Shown in pieces: positions 18,001-24,000 of a DNA stretch of 64,000 bases. Location of the stretch: the NCBI GenBank assembly GCA_965116925.1, contig OZ220744.1, positions 608,001 through 672,000 on the forward strand, read 5' to 3'. The position numbers were made by a program. Source of the stretch: Candidatus Poribacteria bacterium. GTDB lineage: Bacteria; Poribacteria; WGA-4E; PCPOR2b. Position 1 is the stretch's first letter. Each line of letters opens with the position of its first letter.

Positions 18001-21000
18001 TGGGTGAGATTAAAAAGGTTACATTTCGCCTACGAAAATCAAATTTTCCCAATTTTCCCGCGCAAATGGGAAAATTGTCCCTATTTCAGCATGAAACGTT
18101 TAGTCATGCTCGCTAATCATATTACAAACAGTTACAAACAATTACATTTTGTCTTCATCCTAAACTCTCCAGAGATGGACGCATCCACCGATGAGGTAGA
18201 TCCCGACCGCCAGCAGAATCACAAGGTTAAAGCCGAACGCAATCGCAAGACAGGTCGCCAGAATCGCGCTTACTACAGACGCATAACCGTTGATGCCCCA
18301 CGCCCAAGCAATTAGATGCGGATGGTGTCTCTGCAACCAGTCTATACCCAACGGGAAGGGCATTCCCATGAAAAACGCTAAAGGTGCAATTAATCCAATA
18401 GATACGACAATCTTCAGGGCATCGGAGCTCGCGAGAAAGCGGTGGAAAATCGGCGGAAGCAGTTGTAAGTAAATAAGCGCGAGGACCGATAATATGCCGA
18501 TTGCAACGGGGATTGGATGTCCCTGAAGCCTCCCGATTGTTCTCAGCTTCAGCGAAAAAAGGCTGCCGAGACCCGCAAAAAGCAAGAACGCACAGAGCAC
18601 AACCGCAACCGCATACGTTGGGTTCGCAAGCAACAGAAGAAACTTCTGGATGAACGACATTTCGATGAACATGAATCCAACACCCAGACTCAGAAAATAG
18701 ATGAATACTCGCCAAGTCTCGGACACTCGGAACGGAGTGGTAGAACGCGGATTGGGTGCGGTGGAGGAAGTGGCTTCCCGCTTCAGGAAAAAGAGCGGTA
18801 TCAGAATCAAGACTAGCCCCGCCAGTACCGCTTGGATCAACGTTGCAATCAGGAGCAGATACCCCCATTCGATGAACGGGATAGCACTCCTCCCGACCGT
18901 CCGAACCATGTGAACCAGTGAATCAAAACGCAAAAATTGAAAGAAATATGGACGATTATCAGTTGTAGGGCGGATATTGAAGGGATACCCTTCGTAAAAT
19001 TGTTCCCGATCGTTGGATAAAATCGCTTGTGCGGCCCGAAAGTAGATCGGCTCCGTCAATTGGTTGTAGCGATTTGCTTCTACCTCCGACATTTGAGGGG
19101 AGTACGCCAGATCAAAAGAACGCTCACGGCAAAAATCCTGAATCGCCGCTCGATCTGCCGCGTCGAAAGCCCCCCTCTTTATTAGCAACGTGCCGGTCCG
19201 CCAGCCACGAATCATCGCCAACTGTTGAGCGGGAACCGCGCCATCATGCCGTTCCAGCGTCTCAACTGCCGTTGCAAATAACCGTATCATATCACGCGGC
19301 GGAGTTTTCAGCCAGCGCGTAATCGAAATAATGCCCCCAGGTGCCAGGTGTTGATACAGGTCTGTGAACGCCTCAACGGTGTAAAGATAGCTTTCGCTCA
19401 GGGCGTGCGTCCCTGCCGCAGATGCGCTCACAGAATCGAGCAGTGCAATCTGGATAAGATCGTACCGCTTTGTTGTTGCTCTCACAAATCCGCGCGCCTC
19501 TGCGGCGTGAACCTGCACCGGATAGGGTGAATCTAGCGCGTAGATGTGCCCGGCGAAATCTGTGTGTTCTTTCGCCACGAGTTCAAGTACTTGTGGGTTT
19601 AGCTCCACCGCATCGACCGATACCACACCGTGATACAGCGCGTTGAGGACATCCCCGCCACCACCCGCACCCAAGACCAGCACGCGAGGCGGCTCAAGTA
19701 GGTGATATGCCACCGCCGATGTTGTATCCCCAAGATAACCTAACTTTGATAGGTCACCTCTGAAATCGGTTATCGCTGTCATTCCATCGGCATCGGTGAA
19801 TAAGCCCAACTGTGGTTGTACCGGATGCTGTGTGTTTAGACTCAACCCCGGCACCGCACGGATTAATTCACTACGAACCACATGCAACACACCGAAGGGA
19901 CTATGCCGCTTATTCAAAATCTGTGCATCCGGGAAATTCAACACACTACTCAACCCTTTGTAGGGTGAAACCTTTATTGAGATAGGGTTGAACAATAGGT
20001 AGCCGATAAACGCAGCAGCCAGTCCAGTTATCGGGATAATTCGCCGCCACCGCCGCGTTTTCCAACTTTCCCAATTAGCGATCAGGACAGCACAAAATCC
20101 AACTGCTGAGATGAGCGTCAGGTTTTGTGCCGGGGGAATCAGGTACATCGTAACAATGATGCCCAAAGCCCCAATACCGGAACCAAAAAGATCGAAAAAA
20201 TAGAGCCGGTTGACATTTTCTGCAAATCGGAGCAACGCCAGGCCAATGCAGGCTGCACCAAAGAAAAACGGGAGCGATAGAATAAGATACAGGGCGAAAA
20301 TCGATAACACCTGACTCGGCTGCCAAACCAGCATCAGTGGATTAAACGGTACATATTGATGCAGCACAAAACACCCAACAACGCCGATTGAATAGAGCAA
20401 TCCACAAATCGTGTAAGCATTGTGAAAGCGTCGGTCTACTTTGTCGGATTTCCAACGATTCCCCATCAACCAACGTTGCGTAAGCGAAATCGCTGTCCCA
20501 CTCGCACCAAATCCAAGCAGTGCGAGGCTGATGATCATGTGCGCGAAATGATGCCATTGCGCTATTGAAAACAGGCGTACAAGCGTAATCTCATAAGCGA
20601 TGATTGAACCGGCTAGCAGGGCAACAGAGAGGAAATAGAGGTTCATCGTCAAATGGATTTCTACGGCATTTCTCGGAGAAGTTGTTTGGTTACGACCTCA
20701 AATCGCGCACGTGTCGCATGCTGTAGTTGGGGAAACCAGAGGGCCGGATCCGATGGCTCGCTTGTCCACTCTGCTGACCCGCTATACAATACATAGACAT
20801 CCCACGCGGTTTCGTTTAAGCGGAGCAGATCCTTCCAAAGGTCGCCAGTGGCTTTGTTGCTATCCCAATAATGCGTAAATCTTTCGTGAGTAAACTCATT
20901 AGCCCGTCTCTCTGCCGAGACCCGATTATCGCTATTAAGGATCGGTTGCCAGATCAGATAAGCCCGCAGCCGTTCATCCCCAACTCTTTCAAACAGTTTT

Positions 21001-24000
21001 ATTATTTCGGAGACCCCCCGACGACATTTCGGTCAGCCGGGAGAAAGCAGCGCAACTACGCGAACATTACCTGTATCTTCTTGGAAATGATGCATCAACT
21101 GATCTATATGCACAAGTTCCGTGACAGGCTGCCGATCACTCCTGAAAACATCTTTCTGCTTTTCGGCAGTCTCGCGCATCTGATCAATCAGGGGCTTACG
21201 TTCATCTCGGTCTAGCACACCGAGCAAGGTGTTTTGCCACGCCATCGGAATGAGGACCTCCATCTGTTGCATGAGCGTGAGGCCATCAAGGGTGCCCCAC
21301 CGTTCCGCAACGACTCCATCGGCGATTTGATAGATGTCGAATCCTGACACCGTTACCTGCTTGTCAGTTGGGTCAATCCCCATAAAACTATTTTTGTGAG
21401 TACCCTGCATAGTGGTACGAGTTACCACCTGATCTCCGTTGACAGTCATCTGCTCAACGGTGAAACGCAGATCGGGAAAGGCGAAACGTAACGCTCTTAC
21501 GGTCTGTTTGAAGCCTTCTATGCCAGATTTACCCCCTAGACCGATTGGGTTATGATCGATATATTCAGCGGCAATTAGCGTCTCTACTTGCTCCAGCTTT
21601 CCCTTGTTAAAGACCTCCTCGTAGATGCGAGAGATGGTCGCTCGGTCCGCTGCCGCTCCGGCGTCTTCTGCCTCCGCAATTGATACCTCAATCAATAGGC
21701 AAGCACCGATTAGGAGCACTCCCACTATCAAGAGATGGGGTAGTTTTGTTACTGTTAGCGATTGTTTCATATTTTAACTCCTATCTATTTGGACTTCTGA
21801 TTGATTTTGTCATCAGGTTCTCCAATTATACCAATTCGATTCGCAATGTCAATGAGAAAATGTAGATTCGACCTTCTTTTTCTATGGGTCCGGTAGGTTG
21901 GGCTTTCTAGCCCGACTACATCAATGGACCAATGACTTTCACATTTCATCCATCACGTTTCACATTCTCCGCATACAGTCAATCCCACCCCGAAGTTCCG
22001 GGCACCGCTCCCGCTGTAGTTGCCCGCCTGTCCCGATTCATCGCGGATTTATCGGAACCTGCTCTCGCTTACTCACGGAACGGAGGCACGGACGATTTAT
22101 GCCGATTCATCGACAGCTTCGACAAGTCCCGATTTATCGGGATGCTCCCCGATACATCGGGGCAGGCTGGAACGGCATCGGGATCAGGCATCCTATCGAG
22201 GGCGGCGAAATACCCGCAGGTCAACCTATCATACAAATTGGCACAACCTCTGGGCACCGATCAGAAAAAAAAGTCAAACCCCAGAGAAAGGTGCTTTCCT
22301 TCACTAAGGTGTAACCCTACCGCTGGATCTCCATCCTCGATGTTCGTTAAAGTAATACTAACACAGGCTATACCATAATGCAACTACTTTGTTTACAGTT
22401 GTGAAATTTTCCCGGCAAACATACCCAGATAACTGTGTGTGACATAAGAAGAGATGGCTCACCAATCGACAATGACACCCCGTGCTTCAAGAGCAGGAAT
22501 GTGTTGATTGCGTGAAATGTCGCTCAACTGATTCCCTTGGAGTTGTATCAAATCGCCTGCCCCGATCCCTATGTTATCTAGCAACGACTGAATATCTACA
22601 ATCTTGTTCCGCCTTAGACTGAGTCTCTCTAGCTGAACCAATCCCACAAGCGGGCTGAGATCCACAATCTGGTTGCTAGGGAGATACAAGGAATCTAGCT
22701 GAACCAACCCGGCAAGTGGGCTGAGATCCGAAATCTCGTTGCCCCCGAGACTCAGGCGCTGTAGTTGAACCAACCCGGCAAGCGGGCTGAGATCCGAAAT
22801 CTCGTTGTTAGAGAGAGACAGGGACGGTAGCTGAATCCACCCGGCAAGCGGGCTCAGGTCGGAAATCTCGTTGTTAGAGACATCCAGGAACGGTAGCTGA
22901 ACCAATCCCACAAGCGGGCTGAGATCGGAAATCTCGTTGTCTTCCAGAGCGAGTACCTCTAGCTGAACCAACCCTGCAAGCGGGCTGAGATCTGCAATCT
23001 GGTTGTCTTCCAGATCGAGTCTTTCTAGCTGAACCAACCCGGCAAGCGGGCTCAGGTCGGAAATCTCGTTGAGAGAAAGATCCAGATATAATAGGTTAAC
23101 CAACCCTGCAAGCGGGCTGAGGTCGGAAATCTCGTTGAGAGAAAGATCCAAATCCCGTAGGTTGACCAAACCGGCAAGCGGGCTGAGGTCGCTGATGCCG
23201 TTTCCCAGCAAATTTAACGTCCTCAGATTGGTGAATCTCGCAAGCGGGCTGAGGTCGCTGATGCCGTTTCCCAGCAAATTTAACGACTCTAACTTGACCA
23301 ACCCCGCCAACGCCGCGAGATGCTCGCTGGATACATTCATGACCTCTATTTCTAACACCACCAAGTTGACACACGCTGCTAATAAATCGACCTCATACTG
23401 TTCAATAAATGCGTATTGAGGCCCCGGGACCAGCCGGAGATGAGTTACCTTTGCCAATTCAGCCTTTGTGGCGTTCATGGGATTTTTCCCCAGTACCTTA
23501 CGCAATTCTATGTCAATTGACCTAGGATGGCCCTCACCTTCCTCTGAGTCGGGGCTCGGTGGATTCGCCGTGTCCTGACCACAGGCGACAAGCCACACCA
23601 CTGCCAAGCAGACCAAGAGTGTGATTCTGACGATTTTCATTGGACACCTTCCTATCGTACTAGATTCGAGAAGTTTTATCACAGAACGGGGTAACACTCC
23701 ACTAAAATCTGGAGTTATGACCTGACAAAAAAGAGGGGCTCTCGCCCCCGGTAGGTGCGGTTTCCAACCGCACCGCATCGTTATGACCTGACAAAAAGGG
23801 AATCCGTTGATTACCTTTATGTATCCTAACCTAAGTTGCTAGTTGATTAACTAAGCGGTGGAAATGGATCCAATAGTCACGAATTGGAATTCCCTTATAA
23901 AAAAAGACACTGTAGGGGGCGTACTTTCCAAATCGCGACAAGAGGCTTGTTCTAATTATGCAGACCTCTCACGATAACTAGTTTCGTCGTAATCAGATAA

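Follow-up and report, generated by a model that had tools for sequence, protein, structure and literature searches.

Several described systems come close to the gene reported here. TlpA, ResA and CcmG (DsbE) are extracytoplasmic thiol-disulfide reductases of the TlpA-like thioredoxin fold, with a redox pair at the start of helix 1 and an N-terminal hydrophobic anchor. Thioredoxin-fold UxxC selenoproteins are catalogued in Table 1 of PMC13188914 as PF13098 (thiol:disulfide interchange protein), PF01323 (DsbA-like), PF08534 (redoxin), cd02966 (thiol-disulfide isomerase-like), SaoT and HUIPC. The SnoaL 'ester cyclase' proteins IdmH (6hnn), TsrD (5x7l), DynA1 (8ysb) and SnoaL (1sjw) are single-domain proteins from polyketide or thiopeptide gene clusters. 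Iodothyronine deiodinase, a selenoenzyme of the thioredoxin fold whose substrate is a small aromatic compound, offers a precedent, by analogy only, for a selenocysteine (Sec) that acts on a small molecule bound to the protein, and the mer-type selenoproteins include the MerT/CopZ fusion-like NF045683 and the UxxU metal-binding NF041115.

Within the window, 64,000 nucleotides of a contig from a Candidatus Poribacteria sponge symbiont, the ORF list contains a 245-codon SnoaL ORF on the minus strand that runs from the ATG at 21770 to a TGA. Translating this TGA as U carries the frame through 123 further codons to the TAG at 20663-20661 and yields a product of 369 residues with the motif ...VVALLSPG-U-PKC-RRG...; the first-pass annotation had proposed this extension, and its coordinates proved exact (Table 1). 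The gene, which is annotated everywhere in its short form as an "ester cyclase", most likely reads the TGA as Sec and very probably encodes a selenoprotein with two domains. We estimate a probability of roughly 0.8 that this single gene encodes an exported 369-residue selenoprotein in which a SnoaL domain is joined to a TlpA-like Sec domain. All 101 matching versions in the public databases are 222-252 aa long, cover 57-66% of the query and stop at the TGA.

Table 1. Features of the read-through gene, in window coordinates.
Feature	Position	Strand	Basis
Whole read-through CDS	20661..21770	-	369 codons including Sec246, and TAG stop
N-terminal basic/hydrophobic segment, residues 1-33, probable signal peptide or membrane anchor	21672..21770	-	by-eye reading of the translation and alignment
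SnoaL-like (NTF2-fold) domain, residues 45-169	21264..21638	-	PF07366 match
Linker, residues 170-213	21132..21263	-	length and sequence vary among f1, f2 and G030
Predicted TlpA/DsbE/ResA-like thioredoxin-fold domain with UxxC, residues 214-369	20664..21131	-	structure model and structural neighbours
In-frame TGA, most likely read as Sec246	21033..21035	-	same codon in 30/30 Poribacteria loci; 63/80 multi-phylum loci
Cys249, second residue of the UxxC redox pair	21024..21026	-	invariant in alignments A1 and A2, nearly so in A3
SECIS-like hairpin UCGGGG-GGU-CUCCGA	21007..21021	-	per-sequence folds and pair counts, 30 sequences

We repeated the search of the phylum (176 Poribacteria genomes, E≤1e-5) and obtained matches in 46 genomes. 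As in the earlier count, 32 matches are near-full-length; they belong to families f1 and f2, have 37-100% identity and contain a single in-frame TGA apiece. This TGA, previously placed at the same codon in four of four loci, is at the identical codon in all 30 Poribacteria loci read, in the context VALLSP[GN]-U-P[KL]C. The match in genome G030 had been described as split, and the phylum search does report it in two pieces, but the locus itself (L067) is a single continuous read-through frame of 343 codons with a shorter linker. Matches to the SnoaL part alone number 37 at E≤1e-5 rather than the 10 given before (8 without a stop, 2 with TAG): 31 contain no stop, two have one TAG, one has two TAG, one has a TAA and two have one TGA. 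Both of the TGA-bearing ones sit on one contig of genome G015. The region 3' of the TGA is under purifying selection (dN/dS 0.137, vs 0.168 upstream; 176 of 190 genus pairs). Because the frame and the codon are conserved, the downstream dN/dS is 0.137, and U falls on the first CxxC cysteine when Cys homologues (LLSPTCPxC and similar) are aligned with it, a chance origin of the read-through frame is excluded.

The N-terminus, as read by eye, suggests that the read-through protein is exported; residues 1-36 have pLDDT <50 in the full-length model. A lipoprotein reading of this segment was rejected because the Cys there is not conserved in the alignment. The SnoaL part, which contains no cysteine, matches PF07366 at E=3.9e-37 (127.3 bits, cut-off 28.4) and IdmH at 6e-16 in a phmmer search against the PDB, and its Foldseek neighbours are TsrD (5x7l), IdmH (6hnn) and SnoaL (1sjw), with target TM of 0.8-0.85. 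It shares the Pfam SnoaL match and the fold with the 'ester cyclase' proteins named above, and the IdmH motifs YIDHNP and GTH..F.G..PTGK align with it. Unlike them, the Poribacteria protein has a predicted export signal and, at its C-terminus, a selenoprotein domain, and polyketide genes are absent from the vicinity of its gene. The linker is disordered in the model, with pLDDT <50 at residues 172-187 and 199-213, and the f2 proteins show gaps and an acidic replacement there.

The C-terminal domain had been called thioredoxin-like from its UxxC only. Its model (m0480db549e1d, pLDDT 96.6) indicates that it really is thioredoxin-like, of the TlpA/DsbE/ResA/CcmG type: the VIA-align neighbours are 3gl3 (Z 14.5), 1kng (12.9), 2f9s (12.8) and 1jfu (11.2), with the fold common over 121-135 aligned residues, and Foldseek concurs. 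The model places U-P-K-C at the start of helix 1, with U just ahead of the helix, the classical redox-active position, and the N-terminal hydrophobic anchor is a further likeness. However, identity to these proteins is just 5-18%, the Redoxin, AhpC-TSA and Thioredoxin_8 models do not match, and the Poribacteria domain has Sec for the first Cys, its own motif set and the SnoaL fusion; no Pfam or NCBIfam model matches it. Like the catalogued UxxC selenoproteins, it carries UxxC within a thioredoxin fold, has homologues with Cys and is predicted to act in redox chemistry, but their Pfam/NCBIfam models match the domain in 0 of 24 scanned proteins, a comparison that covers all but the two cd02966 entries. 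SnoaL is absent from both selenoprotein reviews (PMC13188914, where no family in the whole of Table 1 has such a domain, and PMC9312934), in agreement with the first-pass annotation. Iodothyronine deiodinase likewise combines Sec with a peroxiredoxin/TlpA-like fold (4tr4, Z 11.6), whereas PF00837 gives no sequence match and the deiodinase motif and insertion differ.

A profile search with the C-terminal domain retrieved 1,680 database clusters at E≤1e-3, with Sec or Cys forms in Acidobacteriota, KSB1, Zixibacteria, Chloroflexota and others. Among 80 multi-phylum loci taken from genome contigs, the U site is TGA in 63 and Cys in 11. The family motifs are SP-x-U/C-x-x-C, W-x-P, WD, AWDVYxLY and FWMHQL. 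Elsewhere the domain either makes up a protein by itself or is fused to MerT, HMA, DUF3887 or DF-family domains; HMA fusions account for 14 and MerT fusions for 4 of the 60 relatives scanned (L107 is an HMA and L113 a MerT-HMA fusion), and Sec forms adjoin MerR, zf_CopZ, MerT and HMA genes (L075, L087, L073, L108, L116). We found the SnoaL fusion in Poribacteria only. The idea of a selenoprotein family with a SnoaL domain shifts accordingly: the Sec unit is not peculiar to SnoaL proteins but belongs to an independent, widespread Sec/Cys domain family. The selenium-bearing half of the protein is a member of this family, which has no database model, and the Poribacteria fusion seems to have re-used the wider module. 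Since the domain is often joined or adjacent to MerT, HMA, zf-CopZ and MerR, the chemistry of thiols or metal(loid)s within the cell envelope was probably its ancestral job, with the mer/cop context standing as an association. The wider family resembles the mer-type selenoproteins in its operons and fusions with MerT and HMA, but NF045683 and NF041115 match the MerT and HMA parts and not the C-terminal domain, and the Poribacteria gene has no mer context. The fusion proteins no longer have the His of FWMHQL (they read WFPQL, WMRRM or WVWQL) and therefore may not share the job of their mer-linked relatives.

The first-pass annotation had noted the absence of a clear SECIS hairpin; we found a short conserved one at the canonical distance. 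It has 6 bp and a GGU loop, the stem beginning 11 nt and the loop 17 nt past the UGA, and spans offsets 14-28 in per-sequence folds. The six core pairs form in 30 of 30 sequences, a pair count that omitted 22 of 52 distinct stretches, 10 of them divergent with hairpins different in place or sequence. Pairing holds in 93.8% of cells, vs 32-72% in slid controls, and none of 500 shuffles reached the covariation score; pair 16-28 is CG in 18 sequences, UA in 11 and GC in one. Across phyla the hairpin is maintained, one pair shows compensatory change and synonymous sites are frozen: Sec forms fix the codons CGU CGG GGG GUC/UUC UCC, whereas Cys forms encode the same peptide with CGG/CGT/CGC, GGA/GGG/GGC and TTC/TTT and have no hairpin at that place. 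Position and loop agree with the bacterial SECIS (bSECIS) model (PMC13188914, section 5) and with the SECIS-like element of the genome's own selD, which has the same geometry (stem offsets 13-19/24-30, loop AGUU at offset 20). We count the shortness of the Poribacteria hairpin against the selenoprotein reading: the bSECIS model asks for ≤ -7.5, and the core alone reaches -6.6 kcal/mol (L053, L066), the 42-nt stretch -8.1. A plain 101-nt fold was no better than shuffles (z -0.32), and an Rfam search gave no match. Because the compensatory pair accompanies R to W and D/E to N changes, RNA constraint is only partly separated from protein constraint.

If the TGA were a true stop, the gene would encode the 245-residue SnoaL protein only, and the downstream frame would be either a small gene of its own or a remnant in decay. 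Every one of the 101 public gene calls ends there, more of the window's long ORFs end in TGA than in any other stop (13 of 22), and the single-sequence fold lacks significant structure. We nevertheless consider a true stop very improbable: the downstream frame is open, in register and constrained across orthologues of 37-100% identity, a thioredoxin fold that began behind the TGA would be missing the first strand and the first redox residue, the Cys forms are continuous proteins, and the hairpin with its frozen synonymous sites lies behind the TGA in TGA forms only. Which residue is inserted is not decidable from sequence alone, so that Trp, Cys or Gly could in principle enter by near-cognate read-through or an altered code. 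Yet the same 13 ORFs and several homologues end in TGA, so that the code has not been reassigned; the codon falls at the position of the catalytic Cys; and the SECIS-like hairpin coexists with full Sec machinery, namely selA (532 bits), the selB wing (71.5 bits), tRNA-Sec (76.6 bits) and selD (369 bits), itself with a TGA. SelA occurs in 163 of 176 Poribacteria genomes, including every genus with the SnoaL fusion. Insertion of another residue is scarcely credible to us.

We infer that the protein is exported and works as a selenol-thiol oxidoreductase whose SnoaL pocket binds a ligand. SelB and Sec-tRNA would bind the hairpin and insert Sec at UGA246; outside the cytoplasm, the selenolate would be the attacking nucleophile of a selenol-thiol/selenenylsulfide couple, in the fashion of TlpA-type reductases, and the SnoaL domain may select the substrate through a hydrophobic pocket, be it a small molecule or a protein partner. 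Of the redox SnoaL selenoprotein first proposed, the Sec is very probable and the two domains stand. The SnoaL pocket and the UxxC centre may also act together on a small molecule, but in the model the linker is disordered (pLDDT <50) and the full-length pTM is 0.49, and no conserved neighbour indicates a substrate. A genuine selenoprotein could instead bind a soft metal or metalloid (Hg, Cu, Se/As species) through UxxC and serve in the periplasm as a chaperone or trap, much as MerP or Sco do, with SnoaL as a scaffold or oligomerisation module. The HMA and MerT fusions, the mer-type neighbours of Sec forms and the Sco structural neighbours (4hde, Z 12.1; 6n5u, Z 10.7) speak for such a role; we regard it as unlikely, given that no mer or cop genes lie near the Poribacteria genes, the FWMHQL His, a possible third ligand, is lost, and reductases are the top structural neighbours. 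Sec peroxidases are a common kind of selenoprotein. They are also common among the catalogued ones (Table 1, PMC13188914), and the structural neighbours include GPx and peroxiredoxin entries (3cyn, TMq 0.63; 2wgr, Z 11.4; 2f8a, Z 10.6), so Sec might be peroxidatic and Cys249 resolving, with a lipid or organic hydroperoxide held in the SnoaL pocket. This is a rather improbable role, as TlpA, DsbE and CcmG reductase chains score higher, the GPx/Prx signature motifs UxxT and TxxU are missing, and neither Pfam AhpC-TSA nor GSHPx matches.

Near the Poribacteria loci we saw neither a DsbD/CcdA-type electron donor nor a conserved partner gene. A downstream membrane protein gene is retained in 21 of 30 loci, within family f1 only, and the f2 and G030 loci have other neighbours than f1.

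Selenocysteine (Sec) insertion at UGA246 is, in our estimate, very likely (probability of about 0.9). The minus-strand ORF runs from the ATG at 21770 to a TGA at 21035-21033 (245 codons), and translation of this TGA as U adds 123 codons up to the TAG at 20663-20661, giving 369 residues that contain ...VRVVALLSPG-U-PKC-RRGVSEI.... The ORF list and the TGA=U translation agree exactly with the coordinates and motif of the first-pass annotation, which had proposed an unlisted selenoprotein made of a SnoaL domain and a UxxC domain. The same annotation had reported a single in-frame TGA in every near-full-length Poribacteria match; a repeat search, in which 46 of 176 genomes gave matches, returned 32 near-full-length ones (37-100% identity), each with exactly one TGA. 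Its position at the same codon, first noted in four loci, extends to all 30 loci now read, within VAL[LV]SP[GN]-U-P[KL]C-RRGVSEI. The match in genome G030 had been described as split in two; it is instead a single continuous frame of 343 codons with a shorter linker (locus L067). In the Poribacteria alignments, conservation is higher 3' of the TGA than in the SnoaL part, and the Nei-Gojobori dN/dS is 0.168 before and 0.137 after the TGA (176 of 190 within-genus pairs, in which dS exceeds 0.2 on both sides of the TGA; the downstream estimate leaves out the 11 codons that directly follow it). An altered genetic code was ruled out, since TGA ends 13 of the 22 window ORFs of ≥300 codons and is thus not reassigned. 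Contigs from sponge/metagenome metatranscriptomes cover the gene in four runs of two studies, with a single contig of ~3.6-3.7 kb spanning 20600-21786 across the TGA in two of the metatranscriptome runs, although such contigs cannot show transcription or its level.

The absence of a clear SECIS hairpin had been a caveat of the first-pass annotation because a single-sequence fold of the 101 nt that surround the TGA is unremarkable, being no better than shuffles (z -0.32), and Rfam at E ≤ 10 gives nothing except a chance snoRNA row. Comparison between sequences instead revealed a conserved hairpin. The 23 nt UGUCGUCGGGGGGUCUCCGAAAU 3' of the UGA are nearly invariant even between Poribacteria orthologues sharing just 38% protein identity, and per-sequence folds of nearly every Sec form give a common hairpin, located at offsets 14-28 (counted from the U of the UGA). 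The bSECIS model in section 5 of PMC13188914 describes a stem of ≥4 bp, a loop of 3-9 nt with G among its first two positions, a distance of 16-37 nt to the UGA and a free energy of ≤ -7.5 kcal/mol. The window hairpin has this geometry in its stem, loop size, loop-initial G-G and spacing, with a borderline energy of -8.1 kcal/mol for the 42-nt stretch and -6.6 for the core alone against the -7.5 of the model; hairpins of Acidobacteriota homologues range from -10 to -20 kcal/mol. To count pairs, we used 30 of 52 distinct 42-nt stretches, omitting 12 near-duplicates and 10 divergent rows (L095 and L108 with a 3-nt insert; L112-L116 and L120-L124 with another peptide; L-numbers denote loci of relatives read as DNA). 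Six core pairs are present in 30/30 sequences, and 93.8% of the cells are paired vs 32-72% when the partner is slid. The pair 16-28 varies in a compensatory manner (CG 18, UA 11, GC 1), and the covariation score was reached by 0 of 500 shuffles. The UA variant accompanies R-to-W and D/E-to-N changes, so the protein and RNA constraints are entangled. The Cys forms are a cleaner control. These encode the same peptide, C-R-R-G-F-A/S-D, with the codons CGG/CGT/CGC, CGG/CGC/CGA, GGA/GGG/GGC and TTC/TTT and have no hairpin at this position, whereas the Sec forms hold to CGU-CGG/UGG-GGG-GUC/UUC-UCC.

All four genes of the Sec machinery, selA (532 bits), selB (wing domain 71.5 bits), selC (tRNA-Sec, 76.6 bits) and selD (369 bits), were found in the genome, the first three clustered at 2.37 Mb. 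Among the 176 Poribacteria genomes, 163 have SelA at E ≤ 1e-60, including every genus with the fusion gene. The genome's own selD, outside the window (G000:C1:6018631-6019551; locus L128, TGA near locus position 1528), is itself a selenoprotein gene (...KTCG-U-AAKV...). A 7-bp hairpin follows its UGA at a distance of 10 nt (stem 13-19/24-30; the loop, AGUU, is at offset 20), the same geometry as that of the fusion gene.

The SnoaL domain is an NTF2-like alpha+beta barrel by Foldseek (5x7l, 4lgq, 6hnn and 1sjw, target TM 0.79-0.85), with IdmH, DynA1, TsrD and further "ester cyclases" as its nearest relatives of solved structure. No conserved Cys occurs in this domain in the alignment, and therefore the redox centre has no target in the same chain. 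The structural neighbours of the C-terminal domain are thiol-disulfide reductases that work outside the cytoplasm: DsbE (3gl3, Z 14.5), the DipZ C-terminal domain (13.0), CcmG (12.9), ResA (12.8) and TlpA (11.2). As in TlpA, ResA and CcmG, the thioredoxin fold carries TlpA-type additions (Z 11-14.5), and the CxxC that these proteins have at the N-terminus of helix 1 corresponds to U33-x-x-C36 of the domain, in which U replaces the first Cys. In the model, U directly precedes helix 1 (34-50), which is the classical nucleophile position. Unlike the fold, the sequence models of the TlpA/ResA/CcmG group (PF08534, PF00578, PF13905) gave no match at E ≤ 10 to the window protein or 19 orthologues; the best match among other relatives was that of PF08534 to L095 (E 0.023, 14.9 bits vs 26.6). 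A DsbA-like assignment was raised by a PDB profile match to 3gyk (E 0.003, 53 residues at the motif only) and set aside as less probable, though not rejected outright, once the structure matched TlpA/DsbE/ResA; PF13462 (DsbA-like) stayed below threshold (E 0.13, 12.9 bits vs the cut-off of 23.2), and DsbA chains, with their helical insertion domain, are not among the structural neighbours listed, which does not in itself speak decisively against the family. The possibility of a lipoprotein was dropped since the Cys of the signal segment is not conserved.

Features of the fusion protein and its surroundings, and domain architectures of relatives (L-numbers, relatives' loci)
Feature	Position	Strand	Details
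Basic then hydrophobic segment	residues 1-33		read by eye
SnoaL (PF07366)	residues 45-169		127.3 bits vs gathering 28.4
Variable linker	residues 170-213		disordered in model
Thioredoxin-fold domain	residues 214-369		model built with 55 homologues, pLDDT 96.6
SECIS-like hairpin UCGGGG-GGU-CUCCGA	21021-21007	-	six-bp stem from 11 nt and GGU loop from 17 nt after UGA
830-aa polytopic membrane protein, spermine/spermidine-synthase domain	18160-20652	-	starts 9 nt past selenoprotein stop
439-aa leucine-rich-repeat protein, signal-like N-terminus	22459-23778	-	upstream
Type ISP restriction-modification enzyme, 1042 aa	26568-29696	+	farther along window
Relatives: stand-alone exported protein			~200 aa
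Relatives: domain then DF-family (seleno)protein domain NF049942	L089:517-1488		84.9 bits
Relatives: HMA + domain, MerT-HMA + domain	L107, L113
Relatives: DUF3887 + domain	L095

We searched 1.84 billion representative proteins with a profile built from the last 156 residues of the protein; 1,680 of them matched at E ≤ 1e-3, and 792 did so at E ≤ 1e-10. The relatives covering the motif mostly read SP-T-C-x-x-C, which puts U opposite the first Cys of CxxC. By hand count, ~28 of the best 150 of the 1,680 proteins start just past the motif (e.g. M-C-R-R-G-F...), as expected of a gene caller restarting after an in-frame TGA, and the DNA of the loci confirms this. We read the loci of the 80 best-ranking relatives among 138 confirmed ones: TGA occupies the site in 63 (30 Poribacteria, 33 other) and Cys in 11, and six fall outside the scan pattern, three of these with a TGA near the expected place; the shares are not family-wide frequencies because the scan patterns derive from close relatives. 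The 33 Sec forms from outside Poribacteria are, by their record titles, from Acidobacteriota (Blastocatellia, Chloracidobacterium, Terriglobia), KSB1, Zixibacteria, Krumholzibacteriia, Chloroflexota, Gemmatimonadales, Ca. Onstottus and some MAGs labelled Clostridia or Heliobacteriaceae, and no fewer than eight named lineages have Sec forms. Scans of the window protein, orthologues and relatives yielded no Pfam or NCBIfam model for the C-terminal domain, and the relatives are named "hypothetical protein" in the databases. A feature search with the natural Cys homologue P0003 gave unnamed, mostly Acidobacteriota clusters, together with TlpA/AhpC clusters at 0.86 that serve as leads only. Several relatives (the database proteins P0016, P0021, P0022, P0026 and P0035, and locus L106) have lost both redox residues while keeping the rest of the domain (SPTDPVS, SPSWPAS, SPTWLIS), and may be non-catalytic.

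The fusion to SnoaL was found only in Poribacteria, as judged by the phylum search, 60 Pfam-scanned relatives (from the best 150 of 1,680) and 101 full-length-query matches; neither the 101 matches nor the 60 relatives contain a Cys form of it, and rarer fusions could escape because only the best 150 of the 1,680 clusters were listed. The His of FWMHQL, conserved in the family, has been lost from the fusion proteins. By eye, a C-terminal extension resembling that of L089 is present in L083, L090, L091, L094, L096, L097 and L100-L104 (including Blastocatellia and other Acidobacteriota); if confirmed as DF-type, it would place two selenoprotein-type modules in one chain. Tandem SnoaL arrays occur in other Poribacteria genomes (G003:C201:927-2666, with four in one 1055-codon frame; G005:C33; G006:C590; G015:C603), and two of the SnoaL matches on G015:C603 contain TGA.

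No other kind of selenoprotein is as common as the thioredoxin-fold UxxC type, and the chemistry of the present protein would thus be unsurprising. Its most likely function is that of an exported selenol-thiol oxidoreductase of the TlpA type which takes its specificity from the SnoaL pocket, and we infer that the SnoaL and Sec domains might act jointly on a small molecule. Peroxidase activity is a live rival; GPx and peroxiredoxins, along with Sco and deiodinase, come next among the structural neighbours at Z 10-12, behind the TlpA-type chains, whose Foldseek E values are 4e-6 to 1e-4. Metal(loid) binding by the Sec centre is another live alternative in view of the family's surroundings elsewhere: HMA lies above cut-off in 14 and MerT in 4 of the 60 relatives scanned, and Sec forms adjoin genes for MerR, zf_CopZ, MerT, HMA and thioredoxin (L075:1480-4109, L087:563-1327, L073:1890-2983, L108:1673-3943, L116:1205-2977). 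The frequent ties to MerR, MerT and HMA suggest that metal handling in the envelope may include a selenium-dependent step not recognised so far. A wider proposal, improbable when taken as a whole, would have an uncatalogued family of Sec/Cys thioredoxin-fold proteins that spans phyla (SP-x-U/C-x-x-C ... AWDVYxLY ... FWMHQL) originate in mer-like systems of the envelope that deal with mercury or other soft metal(loid)s, the Poribacteria SnoaL fusion being a periplasmic selenoenzyme whose substrate is a small hydrophobic molecule of the sponge, changed perhaps by deiodinase-like reductive dehalogenation or by reduction of a quinone- or bromotyrosine-type metabolite. Under the preferred oxidoreductase reading, the fusion sets selenium redox chemistry beside a small-molecule pocket, in a protein of an uncultured sponge symbiont that is exported according to a signal read by eye.

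The full-length query matches 101 database proteins, all of 222-252 aa (57-66% coverage), and those that have a name are annotated as "ester cyclase" or "steroid delta-isomerase-like"; with no Pfam or NCBIfam model for the Sec domain, pipelines cut such genes at the TGA. The first-pass statement that SnoaL and NTF2 are absent from the published selenoprotein catalogues holds for the accessible parts of PMC13188914, including all 119 families of its Table 1, and of PMC9312934, in which Poribacteria and Acidobacteria entries are lacking as well. The Sec domain matched none of the Pfam/NCBIfam models of these 119 families, a comparison that concerns entries defined by such models and not the cd-defined ones. 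At abstract level, the literature on selenoproteins in Poribacteria, on selenocysteine with SnoaL or ester cyclase, and on thioredoxin-like selenoproteins of Acidobacteriota gave nothing relevant. One of the cd-defined Table 1 entries (cd02966) is the "thiol-disulfide isomerase-like" UxxC family of a 2005 Sargasso Sea paper (PMC1088965), whose Cys homologues are described there as widespread in finished genomes. This description fits ordinary TlpA-like proteins better than the present family, without proving that the two are separate. So far as our searches reach, three things are new: a selenoprotein with a SnoaL/NTF2 domain, a Sec-bearing domain family lacking a Pfam/NCBIfam model despite ~1,680 clusters, and a possible metal-handling role of that family. 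The analysis also exposes a widespread Sec/Cys family that annotation pipelines truncate, and a domain profile combined with the simple SECIS hairpin would allow such genes to be annotated correctly.

The neighbourhood contains no polyketide biosynthesis genes, and instead encodes a spermine-synthase-like membrane protein, PCMT, an M3 peptidase, an LRR protein and a sulfatase. No DsbD or CcdA gene was present in the flanks examined. The two Poribacteria families of the fusion gene, f1 and f2, and the G030 locus share no partner gene: the neighbour is BacA on the opposite strand in f2 and a histidine kinase in G030. The 830-aa membrane protein gene is retained downstream in 21 of 30 loci, all of family f1, suggesting that it forms an operon with the selenoprotein gene.
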